The notes below the pieces were generated by a model. The model was not told where the DNA came from. It worked only from the letters and a program-made list of their open reading frames with translations, and searched no databases. The position numbers and the translations under genes are program-made. This document shows, one piece after another, positions 23,309 through 45,593 of a stretch of 48,301 nucleotides of DNA. Where the stretch lies: sequence record OL539447.1; one strand, 5' to 3'. Each line of letters starts with the position of its first letter. Position 1 is the first letter of the stretch. The stretch comes from Escherichia phage vB_ EcoD_Phleasolo.

Positions 23309-23896
23309 TTTGTATTCCTTAGTAAGTATGTTTCGTTTCGATGGAGTAACTATAGCAAAGGCTTCAGCGGTAGTCTTTAGCAAATCGTGCTATTTGATAT
23401 ACGCGTAACCGATGTAACTCGATGTATACAATCTCATCCGCGGAAAATTGTATACGCTTTTTTACGCGCAGATACGCATTAGTTACATTTATAAATCCTT
23501 ATATAATAAGGTTTTAGAGTAGTATTATTATTATATATATTACTATGTATATCTTGTAACTACTCTCTATAGCTATGTTGGTATGTTTTTCTAAAAGACT
23601 ATGTTTGATTTCCTGTTAAGGAGGAAATGCATATAGATATAGATAGGGTGCAAAATTGGTGGATACATTGGTTACAAGAGTTACATTCAGCATCCATGCG
23701 GCCTAGAGACTAGCAAGGCGTATTTAGGTGCGTTTTACACCGATATACAAAATAGCACGATTAATCAAAACGGCTGCTTCTTGATTGGGTATAGTGCACT
23801 CATCGGCAGCAATGGTGCTGCGTCTATCTACCAAAAAATGGTAGATACAAATGAAATAGCTCCTCAACTTGAGGAGCAAGGATAAGAGAGAAGATA

Positions 23897-30110: not shown

Positions 30111-31058
30111 TTATGAATGCTTATCTATCAGATCTTGCGGGTTATATAACTTTCGCTCAAGTCCCATTTTGAAGTTCCCACCGTTTGGAACTACAACTTT
30201 TAGGCCTCTATCATCAGCAACGTAAAGTGATTCATTGTCATCAGGGAGGCAGGCTACCCGTAATTCGCGTTCACCTCCGAGATAACGATACGCCACTATT
30301 TCAAGATTTTCTGGCGTGAAAGTAACCCAAACCTCCTGATTGGTTGCCACCTTAACACGATAACCATCAATCAGATCGCTTGTCATATATATAGCAGCAT
30401 CAGGCTGGCCGCTTCCTAGCTTAACAACAGAGCCACGCGAATAATCACGCGCCAGAAATGTGTACTCACCATTATCATAAGCAAACATGACGTTACACAT
30501 TTCATCATCAATACCGTCAGCGTGAACCATGTGGCATGGCAATGCATGTATTAGCTCTTCAGAGCCATCATGGCGCAATTTAACACCAACGTCATAAGAA
30601 TCTTCAGTTAGGCACTCATACACGCTTAAATCGGTGTTCTCGCGCTTTTCCGTACGCTCCATTACTGCTACACACGATTCATGATCAGCCATCTTACCTA
30701 ATCCTTTTTCAGGTACGCGTGACGCCCTGCGATAAGCCCTTGCCTTGTAATCCTGCGGAACTTTACCAAGGAATCGACCGAGAATGTTAATAACCTCACT
30801 ATAAGGTTCTCCAGTCAACTTCATCATCCAGCCAACACCAGAGTCGTTACCGCATTGGTTACAGATGGCGCCACCGTCACCAGGGGAGTTAATATTGTCA
30901 GTCCAGCGGAAGCGGTCTTTTCCCGAGCAGTGAGGGCATGGGCCGTGCTTTTTGCTAAAGTATGAATCATTAAGCCCGCATATAGATTGCAGCGCCTCCC
31001 TCCAGAGGCCTTTCATGTACGGAAGAACCTCTTCTTTCTGGTAACTTATCTCGCTCAC
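30111..31058 (-). CDS. DNA primase (zinc-ribbon containing)
   Basis: N-terminal zinc-ribbon motif GPCPHCSGKDRFRW...CNQCGN; adjacent to the helicase region. Confidence 0.55.
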   Translation of the reverse strand: MSEISYQKEEVLPYMKGLWREALQSICGLNDSYFSKKHGPCPHCSGKDRFRWTDNINSPGDGGAICNQCGNDSGVGWMMKLTGEPYSEVINILGRFLGKVPQDYKARAYRRASRVPEKGLGKMADHESCVAVMERTEKRENTDLSVYECLTEDSYDVGVKLRHDGSEELIHALPCHMVHADGIDDEMCNVMFAYDNGEYTFLARDYSRGSVVKLGSGQPDAAIYMTSDLIDGYRVKVATNQEVWVTFTPENLEIVAYRYLGGERELRVACLPDDNESLYVADDRGLKVVVPNGGNFKMGLERKLYNPQDLIDKHS

Positions 31059-31110: not shown

Positions 31111-31593
31111 TTACTCTTTAGCTTTTCGTGCTGCTTCATTAGCTGCTTTAATTTTACGCCAAGAGCGACACTCTGGTTTGGTAGCTAACTCAGCATCAGT
31201 AACCACGCGCAGCATGTGACGCTTCTTGCAGCGCAGAGTAAGTGGCTTGCCGTTACCATCAAATTGAAGGTCTGGACGGCAGAATGTAGCGCGGAACCCT
31301 TCGCCAGTTCGCTTGTATCGATTGTGAGCAAGCTGGGCGCCACGTGCCGACATCATGCCGCGATTAAACCACTCCTCAACAGCCTGTCGAGTAACCTTTA
31401 ATTGCTTCGCCATATTAGCCTTGCTGCCGTAGAAGTCTAAAACAATCTCAAGCCTCGCCCTTAAACCCGCTCTTACTTCATCCTTTAACACATAGTAACC
31501 TGACGGTCGTTTGCGAGGTTTTTTGTCTTCTGTTCGTATTGTTCCGTTATTACCGTTAAGGGTACGCTTATCAATTTCACACACTTTTATCAC
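31111..31593 (-). CDS. putative HTH DNA-binding protein
   Basis: 160 aa, basic, with an HTH-like segment MAKQLKVTRQAVEEWFNRG; GTG start at 31593. Confidence 0.35.
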   Translation of the reverse strand: MIKVCEIDKRTLNGNNGTIRTEDKKPRKRPSGYYVLKDEVRAGLRARLEIVLDFYGSKANMAKQLKVTRQAVEEWFNRGMMSARGAQLAHNRYKRTGEGFRATFCRPDLQFDGNGKPLTLRCKKRHMLRVVTDAELATKPECRSWRKIKAANEAARKAKE

Positions 31594-36824: not shown

Positions 36825-36890
36825 TAGCACTTTTTGCTAAAGCCCTCCGGGGCTTTTGAAAGGTGTCAATTACAGACTGAGGAATCAAAA

Positions 36891-37164: not shown

Positions 37165-37350
37165 ATGGCTAAGTTCACACAATCAGATGCACAAATCGAA
37201 GTTAAAGATGTTGGTTTTGGTAAGGCATTCAAGATTGCGCAGGCGTACGGGTCTAGCGAAGAAGATGTGAAAGTTGACACTATTAACCTTACTGCTAAGA
37301 ATGCACGTGAGATCGCTTATGCAATCCTTGCAGCACTTGGAGAAAAATGA
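37165..37350 (+). CDS. hypothetical protein
   Basis: 61-aa ORF with RBS GAGAGGA. Confidence 0.4.
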   Translation: MAKFTQSDAQIEVKDVGFGKAFKIAQAYGSSEEDVKVDTINLTAKNAREIAYAILAALGEK

Positions 37351-37351
37351 A

Positions 37352-37525
37352 ATGACTAAATTATTTTGCGTAATCAACAAATCAAAAACTCTGCCGTTCA
37401 CTGTAAACAATCCGTATAGCGCTGAGTATCAGGGTGAAGGAAACTACAAGATTTATGGCGATGACATGACATGGATTTTTGCGCCAATCGATGGAGCTTT
37501 GTTGGAATTCATTATCGCAGACTAA
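37352..37525 (+). CDS. hypothetical protein
   Basis: 57 aa from ATG 37352, coupled to the upstream stop. Confidence 0.35.
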   Translation: MTKLFCVINKSKTLPFTVNNPYSAEYQGEGNYKIYGDDMTWIFAPIDGALLEFIIAD

Positions 37526-39367: not shown

Positions 39368-40951
39368 TCACCCCAGCAGTCGTGGATTAATGTAAACCTT
39401 ATCACCAATCAGGCAGGTGTAGTTTTTCTCATCAAGCATCGGAAGTAAATGGTCTTTAATCTTAGCCATTACGCCAGCCTGAGCCTCAAACGGTCTAACC
39501 TTACGTGCCGCTTCATAGAGTGATCGCAACCCCACCACTCCTTTACTGTTCTTTCCTTGCTTAATAAGAATATCAATTAGCTTGTTCATCTCTGCATTAT
39601 CACCAGCGTGACCAGCAGCATTAGCGGAAGACAAGTAAGTCTTACTCAGTTCTTCAAACATAAGAAGAGCTTCTTGCATCGTTTCAAGCCCAATCTCCCT
39701 GGACTTCTGCGGACTCCCTCCGTTTGGATTAAACCAGTTACGGATAGTGTGAAGAACTGCCGCTATCCTGATTACCTGCTTATCCATTTTACCTAACGCT
39801 CCGCGCAACATTGTGTGCGAGTACTTACCGCCATCTGCAAGGTGCGGCTCCATTTCCTGACGAGCACGGTTGAGGTGCTTCATTGCTGAATTACTGACAG
39901 TTAGTTTTACATCTTGCTCGCTCATTATTTCATGAACAAGACGAAAGTAATCTGCCTTTAATCCACCATCAATTGGTTTATATGTTGACTCGCCCTCATC
40001 ATCAACAAACACACGCTCACCAAGGAATGACTTCTCGCGCACAAGAAGGAAACGCTCTGATACACCGATACCGCGAGCGCCAGCATTCATGATTGCGACG
40101 ATTGTTTCATCCTGCGCAATTACAGAAATGCAACCCATAGCAATAAAGCTCATGTTGTTCTCTGCGTTCGCACGCGCGATAGATACGTTACCAGCATCCC
40201 AGGCCTTCAGAACAAGTTCGCTGTTAGTTTTCTTCGAGCCATCACCGTAAGTCATACCAAGAAGTGAGTTAACACTTGTCGCTTCATCAGAAATCACGGA
40301 GAAGTTGCCCTGGCGGTTGTTGATTCGCGCAAGACCTTCCGGGGTAGTATCAGATACCGGAAACACAATGTCGCACAGCTTTTCTAACTTCTCTTCCAAC
40401 TCCTCTTTATCTTCGAATAATCCAGCCATCTCAGATGGTGACTTCTCTTGCTTCATTTCTTTTGCCAGGGCTGACAATTTAGCCATAATCTTCTTACGGT
40501 CACGCTTGCGTAATTCGTTCAATCGCTCAGTCTCAGCAATCATTGGCGCTAGTGCGAGTGAGTTAATAGCTGACTTACCAGTTGATGGAGGCTGACTGGT
40601 TACTACGTACAGCGCGGTAGGCTGCTGAGTTCCATGATACTCAACCGTAAAGCGACCAAGCATTGCTGCTGAAATACACCCAAGGAAGTGCATGTAAGCT
40701 GAAGACTCTGGGAACTGAACTGAGCGTGCGATATTGCTTGATAATTTACCAACGACATCACAATCATTTCCTAGCGAGATGACCGGATATTTGTCACCAG
40801 TTGAATCAATTTCTACCGGAGCCTTCCAGAATGATGCACTCTGTCGATAACCATTGGCATTAATAGCAACTCGCAATGGTGGTAAATTTTCAGCTGCCGC
40901 AACAGACATTACTTGTTCGACTGATAATTTATCTTCGTTAAAATCAAACAT
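39368..40951 (-). CDS. P-loop NTPase (replication/defence-associated, family unresolved)
   Basis: 527 aa; Walker A-like SQPPSTGKS and Walker B-like FSVISDEA; its termini have a paralogous copy at 43257-43928. Confidence 0.45.
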   Translation of the reverse strand: MFDFNEDKLSVEQVMSVAAAENLPPLRVAINANGYRQSASFWKAPVEIDSTGDKYPVISLGNDCDVVGKLSSNIARSVQFPESSAYMHFLGCISAAMLGRFTVEYHGTQQPTALYVVTSQPPSTGKSAINSLALAPMIAETERLNELRKRDRKKIMAKLSALAKEMKQEKSPSEMAGLFEDKEELEEKLEKLCDIVFPVSDTTPEGLARINNRQGNFSVISDEATSVNSLLGMTYGDGSKKTNSELVLKAWDAGNVSIARANAENNMSFIAMGCISVIAQDETIVAIMNAGARGIGVSERFLLVREKSFLGERVFVDDEGESTYKPIDGGLKADYFRLVHEIMSEQDVKLTVSNSAMKHLNRARQEMEPHLADGGKYSHTMLRGALGKMDKQVIRIAAVLHTIRNWFNPNGGSPQKSREIGLETMQEALLMFEELSKTYLSSANAAGHAGDNAEMNKLIDILIKQGKNSKGVVGLRSLYEAARKVRPFEAQAGVMAKIKDHLLPMLDEKNYTCLIGDKVYINPRLLG

Positions 40952-41613: not shown

Positions 41614-41853
41614 TTATCTCACCTCATCAAAAGTGGCGATTCCAGGGATGAACATACCAACCTTCCAGCCAGCTATAGCAATCCACCCCGAATCGTGCTT
41701 GTGCGGACGCTCAGCGCCATTAATCACCCATTCGTTCGGGATTGTCTTACCGTTAATGATAAGCGGCTCAGCGTCGTATACAGAGTCTTTTACGAACGGT
41801 GTTAAAACCTTCTTATCCGTGCTTTGGATAACGTTAGTGCAGCGAATCTTCAT
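41614..41853 (-). CDS. hypothetical protein
   Basis: 79-aa ORF coupled to its neighbours. Confidence 0.4.
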   Translation of the reverse strand: MKIRCTNVIQSTDKKVLTPFVKDSVYDAEPLIINGKTIPNEWVINGAERPHKHDSGWIAIAGWKVGMFIPGIATFDEVR

Positions 41854-42107
41854 GCTAATACCTCGATTTCTTCTTCCGTAACGCTGAATTCTTCACCTTC
41901 ATAAACAGCCGTGATGCCATCAATTACAACATCGCGCTTCGCATCAATGAAGTACTCACCTTCAAGTTCAAACACCTCAACCTCTTCACCAACTTCATAG
42001 CCCATCTCAGCCAGGCTTAATGCATCTTCGTCAAACTTGATTTCGTTGTTGATAATAATCGCTTTCATCTGATATCTCCTCGTTGTCGATGTGATAACTA
42101 TAACCAA
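41850..42107 (-). CDS. small highly acidic protein (paralog of 46527-46739)
   Basis: 85 aa, about 25 Asp/Glu versus 5 Lys/Arg; first gene of the leftward unit leaving control region B. Confidence 0.4.
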   Translation of the reverse strand: MVIVITSTTRRYQMKAIIINNEIKFDEDALSLAEMGYEVGEEVEVFELEGEYFIDAKRDVVIDGITAVYEGEEFSVTEEEIEVLA

Positions 42108-42160
42108 TCAGGGCTGAATGGTCATTAGCAAAAAGTGCTATTCGTTCGATTTATGGATTG

Positions 42161-42257
42161 TTGCAGATATTGCAATGATTCACTTCACTATTGCATGTAT
42201 AGCAATATTGCATCGATTGCAATGATTTTCTGGACTGTTGCGAAATTTGCAATGATT
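42161..42257. repeat. iteron-like array: three or four copies of TTGCR-N5-TGCAA, each followed by TGATT
   Basis: Copies at 42161-42175, 42191-42205 (degenerate), 42208-42222 and 42238-42252, in the divergent intergenic region. Confidence 0.6.
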
Positions 42258-42682
42258 GATGGATTGATGGAATGAAGGAGGGCGCATCAACTAGTTGGTT
42301 GGTTTTAGCTTACACGAGGAGCTTTCCTTTATATACGCGTTATGGCTTGTTCAACCGTGTGGAGAAATTGCCATATTTACGCCATCCACGCCAGTTTACG
42401 CGCTGGTTACAAAATAAATCCCTTATATAACAACCTTTTAGATTTATTATTATTATTATTATTATATATGTTATCCCGTAACCATGATTATCCAAGATAT
42501 TGGTGATATTTTTTTGATATTGCGCGGCGCATAAAGATTTAGATAAAGAGATAGGGATGCAAGTGGGGTGGAGAAAATGGCTTAACAGACCATAACGGCA
42601 ATAACAGCCTTGATATGACTAGCGTCAGCATGTAACAATTTAGCATAACGTGCGATTACTGAGTTGAACGTGTAAATAATGC

Positions 42683-42710
42683 TTGCGACATTCACCCATC
42701 ATGGTAAGAT
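42683..42710 (+). promoter_or_regulatory. sigma70-like promoter candidate (TTGCGA-N16-TAAGAT)
   Basis: Hexamers read directly, about 30 nt upstream of the 42742 start. Confidence 0.3.
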
Positions 42711-42741
42711 GCTCTCACACTAAACGAGAGGAGTAGTAAAA

Positions 42742-43257
42742 ATGAGTAATACAATTCGTGAAGCAAACCCGACACTTGGCGACCTGGTGCGCCACCTTGT
42801 TAAGATGGCACTCAATTCAGAGGATGGAAGCGTAACAGTTCCCGTTAAGTTGCTTTACAAGAATCTTTACGGAGAAATTGATAACGGCTATGTAGCAGCC
42901 GACTTTAGACCTGGCGGCAAATATTCACTTCCAAAGCTTAAGGCTTCCTATGTTTCAAATACAGCCAGTAGAATGCAGGAAGTTAAAGACGCAGATAAGC
43001 GCGCAAGGTTCTCTTGTGGAGAGATGGATTATAATGGTGATGAGCATTATTGCGTAAAAATCACAATGGTCGACGGAGCTGTTAAGAATGGAACCCGAGC
43101 TAAGACAAGCAGTCAATTAGAGGAGAAAGCGGTAAGCGAGTTTAAAGCCAGGCTACTTAAGCTTTCCCCTAGCGTTGCAGGCATGAGTGGTGATGAACTT
43201 AAGGGCGCGGTAACTATGATTAACGCATATCAGGAAATGATTAAGGAGACTAAATAA
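42742..43257 (+). CDS. hypothetical protein
   Basis: 171-aa ORF with RBS GAGAGGAG; first gene of the rightward terminal unit. Confidence 0.4.
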   Translation: MSNTIREANPTLGDLVRHLVKMALNSEDGSVTVPVKLLYKNLYGEIDNGYVAADFRPGGKYSLPKLKASYVSNTASRMQEVKDADKRARFSCGEMDYNGDEHYCVKITMVDGAVKNGTRAKTSSQLEEKAVSEFKARLLKLSPSVAGMSGDELKGAVTMINAYQEMIKETK

Positions 43258-43928
43258 TGTTTGATTTCAAAGAGGATAAACTTACTTATGAGCAGGTGTT
43301 AGCAGCAGCAGCGGCAGACAATCTGCCTCCCTTGCGAGTATCAATAATTGCAAATGGTTACCGACAATCTGCAAATCTATGGCCTGAACTGGATAAGGTA
43401 TGGCGAATACAGTAATTTTTACATTGATGAGTGCGTTGAACTATATGAAGGATATGGCGAGCCAACTGCGTGCCATGGAGATGAGCTTGGTATCAGCTTT
43501 CCCGAAGAGCGTGAGGATTGATATATGACAAAGATTTCGAACTAGACACTGGAGCTTTAAAGATTATAGAAATCCTCATTAATCAAGGAATGAGCAGTAA
43601 AGGTGTCGTTGGTCTCGGGTCACTATATAATACAGTAAGGAAAGTTAAACCATTCGAAGGTAAAAGTGAAGTAATTATGGATATCAGAGATGTCATCATC
43701 CCAAACCTTGATAAGCTTGGCTATGCATGCCTAATCGGAGATAAGATTTACATCAACCCTAAACTGCTTGATGGCAACCAGGACTGGACTTACAAGGTTA
43801 AGCTGCTGGAAGATGATTTCAACATCGACGATTGCGAGAAGATTGTTGACGAGATTACTATCAAGGCAATTGATGAGCAAATCGAGAGGCTCAAGCGGAA
43901 GAAGAAGTACCTCCTGACCGGTAAATAG
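43257..43928 (+). pseudogene. internally deleted paralog of the 527-aa P-loop gene (N-terminal 52-aa ORF 43257-43415 plus C-terminal ORF 43518-43928)
   Basis: MFDFKEDKLTYEQVLAAAAADNLPPLRVSIIANGYRQSA matches the N-terminus of the 39368-40951 protein; ...KGVVGLGSLYNTVRKVKPFEG...YACLIGDKIYINPKLL matches its C-terminus; ATPase core absent. Confidence 0.45.
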
Positions 43929-44289: not shown

Positions 44290-44766
44290 ATGCGTAAGGT
44301 ACTGATGATATGCGTCTATGTTGCCATATTCTTATTGGCAAACCTCCTGGTAGCCTCATTTGGTCCAGCGGTAACTCCATTTAACGCACTTTTTCTTATA
44401 GCGGCAGACATGGTATTAAGGGACAGGATTCAGTTTGAGAGCGGTGCGGCATGGTCAATACTAGCATGCTTCCTTGCCGGATTTGCGACTGTATTAATAG
44501 CGCCAGGTTCAGAGATGATTGCTTTAGCATCTGGCCTATCATGCTTACTTGCTGGATCAGCTTCAGCGATTGCATTCAAATTAAAGTCTGGTGGATTTTT
44601 TCAGAAGGCGTTGCCAGCAAACGTAATTGCTGCTGCGGTAGATTCAATTGCATTCCCATTAATTGCTTTCGGGTCTATAATGCCAGGCATAACAGCAGCC
44701 CAGTTTGCCGCTAAAACTATTGGCGCATCAATCATACTATTAATCATAAGGAAATTATCTAAGTGA
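44290..44766 (+). CDS. small polytopic inner-membrane protein (possible precursor transporter; family unverified)
   Basis: 158 aa with 4-5 hydrophobic helices; RBS GGAGG; stop overlaps the next gene's GTG start (GTGA). Confidence 0.4.
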   Translation: MRKVLMICVYVAIFLLANLLVASFGPAVTPFNALFLIAADMVLRDRIQFESGAAWSILACFLAGFATVLIAPGSEMIALASGLSCLLAGSASAIAFKLKSGGFFQKALPANVIAAAVDSIAFPLIAFGSIMPGITAAQFAAKTIGASIILLIIRKLSK

Positions 44767-45593
44767 CAATTCACTTCCATGGCTCCCCTATAACGGGGGG
44801 CAAGGGCGATGCACTTGCTCGGACCGCGTATACAAATGGCGGTGCTTTCGTGTCATTCGCCCACCCGCAGCAGATAGAATTGGCGTTTAAGGTAGCGAAT
44901 GCAGTATGCATAGATAATGGTGCGTTCTCTAAGAAGAATAGCGGCAAAGCTACTGACTGGCATAAATTCTATAATGACTTTTTACCCAGATTTATCGACA
45001 GAGAAAAGTTACGATTCTTTGTTATACCTGATGATATCAGCGGGTGCGACAAAGAGAACGACAGATTAATAAGCGAACTTCCATTACACCTAAAGCACAA
45101 AGGAGCTCCAGTCTGGCATATGCATGAGAGCTTAGACAGGCTAGTCCACCTTGCCAACGAGTGGGAATACATGTGTATAGGCTCGTCAGGCGAGTACTAC
45201 TCTATCCGTTCAGAGAAATGGAAGCGGCGCATGAATGATGCCTTTAACGCTCTAATTCAGAGGGGCTACTCAGCAAAAATTCACGGCCTCAGAATGCTGG
45301 ATGGTCGAGTTCTTGGCAACTACCCACTGGATCAGGCTGACTCAACAAACCTGGCTATTAATGCGCCTAAGTGGATATGCAAATATATAGATATGACCAT
45401 TGAGGCGTGCCGAGCTCAGACTCACAGAGACGCATGGATTTCAACCTCAGATCCGAAGTTTGCACTTGAGCAATTAATCGCAGACGGCGGCACAAGGGAG
45501 CAGATGCTGGCACAGAGATGCGCGATACTCAGGAATTGCATAGAAGCAGTAAGGCCACCATCAAGGGATTCATGGAATAGCACGAATTGCTAA
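44763..45593 (+). CDS. hypothetical enzyme (possible TGT/DpdA-like base-exchange enzyme)
   Basis: 276 aa; VCIDNGAFS resembles the TGT substrate-pocket motif (TDSGGFQ); no CxCxxC zinc site seen; coupled to the upstream membrane protein. Confidence 0.3.
   Translation: MTIHFHGSPITGGKGDALARTAYTNGGAFVSFAHPQQIELAFKVANAVCIDNGAFSKKNSGKATDWHKFYNDFLPRFIDREKLRFFVIPDDISGCDKENDRLISELPLHLKHKGAPVWHMHESLDRLVHLANEWEYMCIGSSGEYYSIRSEKWKRRMNDAFNALIQRGYSAKIHGLRMLDGRVLGNYPLDQADSTNLAINAPKWICKYIDMTIEACRAQTHRDAWISTSDPKFALEQLIADGGTREQMLAQRCAILRNCIEAVRPPSRDSWNSTNC

Follow-up and report, generated by a model that had tools for sequence, protein, structure and literature searches.

The replication origin of phage lambda is built from four dyad-symmetric iterons that are bound by dimers of the O protein and lie beside an AT-rich region, and the pac sites of phages SPP1 and P1 contain repeated protein-binding motifs. 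T1 is a classical coliphage; T1-like phages turn up widely, contaminating laboratories and industry, and are also candidates for therapy. The literature, as covered by a partial search, places the T1-like pac only roughly or via weak analogy, and the papers so covered state for these phages either that no origin was found or that iterons are absent. In phage TLS a 21-nt repeat, aaATAGCACnnnTTGnTAAAA, lies about 76 nt upstream of start codons (PMC11447400). The array of palindromes described here is real and conserved, and no prior description of it was found in the literature searched. It appears to belong to a known kind of element, the clustered palindromic protein-binding array, with a ligand and a function that can be proposed from comparison among relatives, and it points precisely, and in a form open to testing, to a candidate cis-acting control site at the end of the genome, together with a named candidate ligand.

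Anatomy and conservation of the array

The window, by which we mean the whole stretch of DNA analysed, is 48,301 bp long and represents the complete genome of a T1-like phage (Drexlerviridae, Rogunavirinae). A query of 1,001 bp (41800-42800) matches Klebsiella phage vB_KpnD_Opt-79, the record of which is also 48,301 bp long, and Escherichia phage Sadiya (48,303 bp) at 100% identity. The records OL539453, OL539467 and OL539451 are near-identical genomes of 48,301-48,303 bp (99.8-100% over the 1-kb query), and the hosts deposited for this trio differ, being Klebsiella pneumoniae, Serratia marcescens and E. coli. The window opens with the gene for the small terminase (TerS; 4-519, P22 gp3 family), followed by that for the large terminase. 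The intergenic region that holds the array extends over 42069-42741. It is bounded on the left by the ATG (42068) of the first gene (41850-42068) of a leftward operon that includes a DUF3987 helicase (39368-40951), and on the right by a rightward run of small genes that continues to the terminase genes. To the right of this region, 44290-44766 (+) encodes a VUT-family membrane protein according to the Sadiya annotation and is followed by the gene for a 276-aa protein (44763-45593, +), which may resemble the DpdA/transglycosylase genes of 7-deazaguanine DNA-modification modules. The sequence GATC is strongly depleted across the window, with 39 occurrences found and about 185 expected from base composition.

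The array consists of four near-identical 19-bp palindromes of the form T(A/G)TTGC(A/G)-N5-(T/A)GCAAT(A/G), spanning 42159-42254: site 1 (TGTTGCAGATATTGCAATG, 42159-42177, core 42161-42175), site 2 (TATTGCATGTATAGCAATA, 42189-42207, core 42191-42205, with AGCAA as its right half), site 3 (TATTGCATCGATTGCAATG, 42206-42224, core 42208-42222), which abuts site 2, and site 4 (TGTTGCGAAATTTGCAATG, 42236-42254, core 42238-42252). Centre-to-centre spacings of 30, 17 and 30 bp arrange them as two 30-bp-spaced pairs set back to back, and the whole array has a pseudo-dyad at about 42206/42207. An initial annotation had listed three copies of TTGCR-N5-TGCAA-TGATT, at 42161, 42208 and 42238, plus a degenerate one at 42191. 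The three are exact matches, and TTGCR-N5-TGCAATGATT is found nowhere else in the window even when two mismatches are allowed (0.54 expected by chance). The copy at 42191 (TTGCATGTATAGCAA) is present as well, but 'degenerate' misdescribes it: it is a genuine fourth site, undecayed at 21.9 bits, and TTGCA-N5-AGCAA is its conserved form among relatives.

A weight matrix derived from the four sites together with the homologous ones of nine phages assigns them 21.7-23.1 bits (23.1, 21.9, 21.7 and 22.0 for sites 1 to 4), scores that are high partly by construction. The next-best site in the genome reaches 13.0 bits, as against a mean best score of 13.2 and a highest of 17.2 in shuffled genomes, and since this runner-up stands only at the level of the shuffles, the four-site cluster is unique in the genome. 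A genome-unique cluster of repeated sites, four of them against a 13.0-bit runner-up, is a property of iteron-type origins, and palindromic sites fit a dimeric helix-turn-helix (HTH) protein, the predicted ligand, as they do in a Cro/CI-type operator cluster. The term 'iteron-like', by which the array was at first described, is apt as regards the repeated cluster and loose as regards the repeats: plasmid-type iterons are direct repeats of 17-22 bp in helical phase, whereas the units here are inverted, palindromes in place of long direct repeats, and are spaced 30/17/30 bp. The direct-repeat families detected in the region are by-products of the palindromes. The nearby direct repeats that had been noted are indeed there, one copy of ATGGATTG (42153-42160, +) standing at the left flank of the array as part of a direct-repeat family, and a second copy (42259-42266) and ATGGAATG (42267-42274) lying within a purine-rich tract to its right. 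An Rfam search gave no family near threshold, and a fold z-score of -2.2 simply reflects the palindromes.

Conservation of the array in related phages, which had been proposed as a check, is borne out by a block of about 200 bp (42073-42280) that matches about 135 phage records (Rogunavirinae, Braunvirinae and Nouzillyvirus), in many of which the match does not extend into the genes on either side. When nine relatives are aligned, conservation is 86-100% in the half-sites (about 95%) as against 74-84% in the 5-bp spacers; at site 1 the figures are 96-98% for the half-sites and 84% for the spacer. Read from this alignment, the conservation is at the level of the DNA and follows the palindromes, not codons. 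A small ORF (42135-42275, +) does overlap the array, and it is annotated as a hypothetical or membrane protein in Sadiya (Sadiya_63), phiEB49 (gp1) and CEB_EC3a. Its presence in the window and these annotations would fit a small protein-coding gene as the source of the conservation, but in-frame stops break the ORF in Rtp, Rogue1 and UDF157lw, its C-terminal ends vary in MSK, Sd1, SU57 and XT34, and conservation tracks the palindromes. Coding potential was rejected on the ground of these interruptions, which also make the gene annotation over the array probably spurious, and we consider a coding explanation highly improbable. There is a practical side to this, in that a number of GenBank records have their first or last base inside the array, and some annotate this gene over it.

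The position of the array is occupied by other motifs in some relatives. The exchange takes place, as read by eye, between a conserved TTAGCAAAAAGTGCTAT element and the purine-rich tract, the equivalent of 42145-42260. Inspection by eye also places TATTCC/GGAATA repeats there in T1 (upstream part), Hanrivervirus, Webervirus, LF82-10, Phc and the locus L046, and a short GGTATCA-type motif in MM01, ACG-M12, ECH1 and SCS31. Loci with a swapped motif include L010, L011, L013, L023, L027, L028, L046 and L048; the TLS-like loci L048 and L049 carry TTGCA-N5-TGAAA variants, and T1 has both TATTCC repeats and two TTGCA palindromes. Absence from otherwise syntenic relatives had been named at the outset as grounds for dismissing the array, and such absence is formally seen in MM01/ACG-M12, LF82-10, Phc, Webervirus and Hanrivervirus. 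Other motifs are found there, however, and a different motif in syntenic relatives, judged from these sequences, looks like a switch of specificity and not like evidence against function. Since the motif that MM01 and ACG-M12 carry here is short and unclear, the long array is not indispensable.

The packaging end and the terminase

Directly to the right of site 4 lies the purine-rich tract (ATTGATGGATTGATGGAATGAAGGAGGGC, 42255-42283, +), which holds ATGGATTG and ATGGAATG and is present in every array class inspected (sequences read by eye). Its right edge aligns with the ends that PhageTerm assigns to relatives. For UDF157lw, PhageTerm supplied the start at which the record was re-opened (PMC10838988), and the first base of that record aligns with about 42283 of the window; MSK has a PhageTerm forward terminus at 36,862 (PMC8421802), which aligns with about 42284; and the SU57 record end, which coincides with the PhageTerm result and a coverage step (PMC7718038), aligns with about 42305. 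The read-based ends of these three relatives fall 26-50 bp to the right of site 4, at the edge of the purine-rich tract, and by alignment to them the pac end of the window would lie at about 42283, a neighbour of the array that the initial annotation did not mention. The MSK authors placed the terminus on the forward strand and predicted forward packaging (PMC8421802), which is rightward in the orientation of the window. The record ends of UDF157lw and SU57 agree with this direction, and the array sits on the non-packaged side of the cut. The Dam-encoding relatives T1 and LF82-10 have two to three GATC sequences clustered beside the purine-rich tract at the pac end, and XT34 and TH30 have a GATC cluster in the same place.

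The T1 reference record begins within the homologous array, where there are two sites, likewise 30 bp apart, and it annotates 1-2800 as a terminal repeat; the records of Rtp, Rogue1, FP and XT34 also start or end within the array. Records with an end in or beside the array are those of T1 (NC_005833), Rtp (AM156909), Rogue1 (NC_019718), FP (MT682706), XT34 (OR767160), ACG-M12 (NC_019404) and MM01 (MK373793). The ends of older records such as T1 and Rtp may rest on convention, and those of Rtp, Rogue1 and ACG-M12 may simply follow the convention set by T1. Comparison of these record ends with the read-based termini suggests that the conventional T1-like 'position 1' may be tens of bp off the real pac cut.

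With a first packaging cut so close by, one explanation is that the array forms part of the pac site, as a docking or architectural platform on which TerS or an accessory protein would set the terminase in place for its first cut. The PhageTerm-derived ends of UDF157lw, MSK and SU57 (about 42283-42305) put the cut where a pac site would have it, the record ends that fall within the array in T1, Rtp, Rogue1, FP and XT34 point the same way, and known pac sites such as those of SPP1 and P1 hold repeated protein-binding motifs. A recognition sequence for the terminase would be expected to covary with TerS, however, and this is not what is seen. The TerS proteins of MSK and MM01 are 90.5% identical and their arrays differ, while those of MSK and the window are 63% identical and the array type is the same; a single TerS alignment column follows array type, as against 54 that follow phylogeny; and TerS at least 80% identical to that of the window occurs in only 31 records, as against about 135 that bear the array. 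The small terminase was therefore rejected as the reader of the array. A scan of IMG/VR with TerS returned seven close relatives, and a scan with a helicase profile worked better. Further points against a packaging role are that the cut leaves the array on its unpackaged side and that the record ends of Rtp, Rogue1 and ACG-M12 may do no more than copy T1.

Farther to the right lies an AT-rich element at 42404-42484, in which an inverted repeat, TGGTTAC...GTAACCA, brackets CCCTTATATAAC...(TTA)7 TATATAT. The (TTA)n tract that had been reported at about 42440-42465 is (TTA)7 at 42444-42464, and the most AT-rich 40 bp of the genome (42435-42474, 93% AT) lie here, in the same intergenic region as the array and 180 bp from site 4. 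The element is conserved even in MM01 and ACG-M12, in spite of their differing arrays, and in all phages with similar TerS, and its distance to the PhageTerm cut is a constant 135-137 bp in MSK, in UDF157lw and, for the cut placed by alignment, in the window. On the strength of this constant distance and of conservation across array types, the AT-rich element is to be preferred to the palindromes as the candidate that the terminase recognises. We regard a part in pac as an unlikely function for the array itself, and the failure of TerS to track the repeats redirects the search for pac recognition to the adjoining purine-rich and AT-rich elements. Elsewhere in the genome, a different intergenic region holds a second very AT-rich stretch (23477-23576; 80% AT across 100 bp), near which stands an ATAGCAC element (see below) at 23377-23393 (-).

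Candidate ligand and function

The candidate ligand is a Cro-like HTH protein of 160 aa (31111-31593, -; phrog_2856, 'transcriptional regulator') encoded directly upstream of the primase gene (30111-31058). Its model has the Cro fold, with the Cro proteins of Xfaso 1, N15 and P22 as best structural matches, and it has conserved N- and C-terminal extensions. Covariation with the array was followed in two sets, one of about 40 orthologous families from nine genomes and one of 80 IMG/VR loci around the helicase, 15 of them with the array type of the window. Four genes separated array-positive from other genomes, namely those for the HTH protein, DUF7244, a 79-aa neighbour and, marginally, the helicase, and only the HTH protein does so cleanly and survives all checks. 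It is at least 87% identical in 12 of 12 array-positive loci as against at most 72% in 62 others, and the 71% identity of the protein from ACG-M12, where the array differs, fits this pattern. Across the phage collection there is a gap in HTH identity from 83.9% to 67.8%, and 128 records stand at 80% or above, to be compared with about 135 that have the array. The HTH segment is the most diverged part of the protein, at 40-56% identity between array classes and 80-96% within a class. The genes between the HTH gene and the array are not co-inherited with the array, so simple physical linkage does not explain the association. The relation of helix to motif is not one-to-one: T1, the TLS-like loci L048/L049 and the loci L068/L069 have TTGCA-N5-TG(C/A)AA sites too, although their HTH recognition helices differ, and TATTCC/GGAATA arrays accompany six different HTH helices. 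The link between protein and array is thus one of co-inheritance and structural plausibility, and a co-adapted module could account for it without direct binding.

Similar half-sites in phages with different HTH helices are also what would be expected if the HTH protein were unrelated to the array, and the protein that binds the array came from the host or were a different one of the phage (DUF7244 or the helicase, for example), or if the array had a structural role such as DNA bending. DUF7244 (37274-37525) does separate array classes (at least 68% against at most 57% identity), but it has no recognised DNA-binding fold. The DUF3987 helicase (phrog_2373, 39368-40951, -), which belongs to the leftward operon and lies 1.2 kb away from the array, is marginally co-inherited with it (at least 88.8% against at most 86.9% identity) and its N-terminus differs in MM01. 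Its N- and C-termini nevertheless make a weak candidate for the array reader, as LF82-10 resembles the window there and has another array. The 79-aa gene (41614-41853) is excluded by 90% homologues in ACG-M12 and ECH1, which have a different array, and the array region holds no DnaA or IHF consensus sites. We hold a different ligand or a structural role to be more doubtful still than a part in packaging. DUF7174 (42742-43257) was also rejected as ligand, being absent from T1, which has sites, and only 44% identical in Sd1, as was the mini-helicase phrog_7327 (43257-43928), likewise absent from T1. The mini-helicase corresponds to no more than the N-terminal ~49 aa and the C-terminal ~90 aa of the DUF3987 helicase; its gene is inverted relative to 39368-40951 (-), on the other side of the control region, and is split in the window into ORFs 43257-43415 (+) and 43518-43928 (+), where Sadiya has a single annotated CDS.

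A Cro/XRE fold and an annotation as transcriptional regulator suit a protein that acts on promoters, and the array lies in a divergent intergenic region. A sigma-70-like promoter for the leftward operon, ATGACC-17-TATAGT (42097-42125, -), can be proposed on a consensus match only; the block that contains it is conserved in MM01, MSK and LF82. Just upstream of it is a copy of a T1-like regulatory repeat, ATAGCACTTTTTGCTAA (42125-42141, -). The repeat, ATAGCAC-N3-TTG-N-TAA, occurs 15 times in the window as against 0.15 expected, with copies that include 2182, 31598, 36824, 41012(-), 42125(-) and 45577, and it probably marks a phage-specific class of promoter or an activator site. Fourteen of the 15 copies are on the local gene strand, and the exception (42640-42656) is the poorest match. 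The array could then be a local transcription-control site, at which the Cro-like HTH protein would activate or repress the leftward helicase operon, the rightward early genes or both, with replication uninvolved. Site 1 is roughly 70-90 bp upstream of the promoter-like site, and a genome-unique cluster is what local control predicts. In a Cro/CI operator, however, sites overlap core promoter elements, and here no -35 or -10 hexamer is overlapped: no hexamer pair lies within the array, and the nearest, at 42097-42125, stops short of the sites, which begin at 42159. If transcription starts at about 42090 the four sites span roughly -70 to -165, an unusual placement for an activator, and a plausible rightward promoter, near 42683-42710, is more than 400 bp from the array. 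A genome-wide scan with the matrix placed no palindrome at the other 14 promoters that bear ATAGCAC and no autoregulatory site near the HTH gene (31111-31593). The lack of hexamer overlap and of sites at those 14 promoters speaks against both a classical operator and a dispersed regulon, and we rate local transcription control as possible, ahead of a packaging role and on the whole unlikely.

The array is most likely a protein-binding cluster, and the reading that we favour, tentatively, is that of a replication-origin-like assembly site for the Cro-like HTH protein; both the ligand and the origin function we infer from sequence comparison. Each palindrome would be bound by a dimer of this protein (31111-31593), the nucleoprotein complex would mark the origin of phage replication and recruit the phage's own DUF3987 helicase and primase, and strand opening would take place at the nearby AT-rich element, much as at the four dyad-symmetric iterons of the lambda origin. 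The resemblance to a lambda-type origin lies in a unique cluster of four palindromes within about 100 bp, an HTH gene next to that for primase, and the most AT-rich 40 bp of the genome. Against it, no simple code can be read from the recognition helix, the AT-rich tract stands 180 bp away from the array and not next to it, the short unclear motif of MM01 and ACG-M12 makes the long array dispensable, and the packaging end 26 bp away leaves room for a role in packaging. GC skew, which had been suggested as a check for an origin, follows gene orientation and transcription and is for that reason uninformative here. The proposal of the initial annotation, that a dimeric protein binds the sites as an operator cluster or origin, is upheld in its core by the palindromes, their conservation and uniqueness and the co-inheritance of the HTH protein; a classical operator is disfavoured by the position of the promoter hexamers, and operator and origin cannot be separated with certainty. 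An origin-like site stands first in our ranking, followed by transcription control, an accessory role in packaging, another ligand or role, and coding.

A more speculative extension, which we would not call likely, is that T1-like phages carry an exchangeable origin cassette, in which the site array next to pac (palindromic or of the TATTCC type), the Cro-like initiator that reads it, which evolves fast and shares its locus with primase, and the DUF3987 helicase that this initiator would load would be swapped between subfamilies as one unit. Were this so, the initiation of replication and that of packaging would be coupled at a single locus, with the origin tens of bp from the first cut.

Comparison with known systems

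The dispersed repeat of TLS and T1 (aaATAGCACnnnTTGnTAAAA; PMC11447400) is, like the array, a conserved non-coding element of T1-like phages, and its copy at 42125-42141 (-) is 20 bp from the array; the palindromic array differs from it in sequence and in occurring once. The pacL/pacC/pacR repeats of SPP1 and the hexamer repeats of P1 pac share with the array the placement of a repeat cluster tens of bp from the first cut, and in SPP1 pacL the repeats are likewise on the unpackaged side. The difference lies in TerS, which here belongs to the P22 gp3 family and shows no covariation, the motif being swapped between phages whose TerS proteins are 90% identical.

The lambdoid operators OR and OL resemble the array in their palindromes with half-sites one helical turn apart, in their location in a divergent control region and in a candidate ligand whose best matches are the Cro structures of Xfaso 1, N15 and P22. 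They differ in that the sites here stand off the -35 and -10 hexamers and number four, not three, that the phage is virulent and has no repressor noted, and that the ligand is a protein of 160 aa with conserved N- and C-terminal extensions encoded with primase. In comparison with the lambda origin, the array is intergenic and not inside the gene for the initiator, its candidate ligand is Cro-like in fold and not of the O type, 180 bp separate it from the AT-rich tract, and the spacing, 30/17/30 bp, is not regular. What the two share is four sites of about 19 bp with internal two-fold symmetry, gathered within about 100 bp as one cluster per genome, with an AT-rich tract nearby and, in the T1-like phage, a candidate initiator that is co-inherited with the phage's own helicase.
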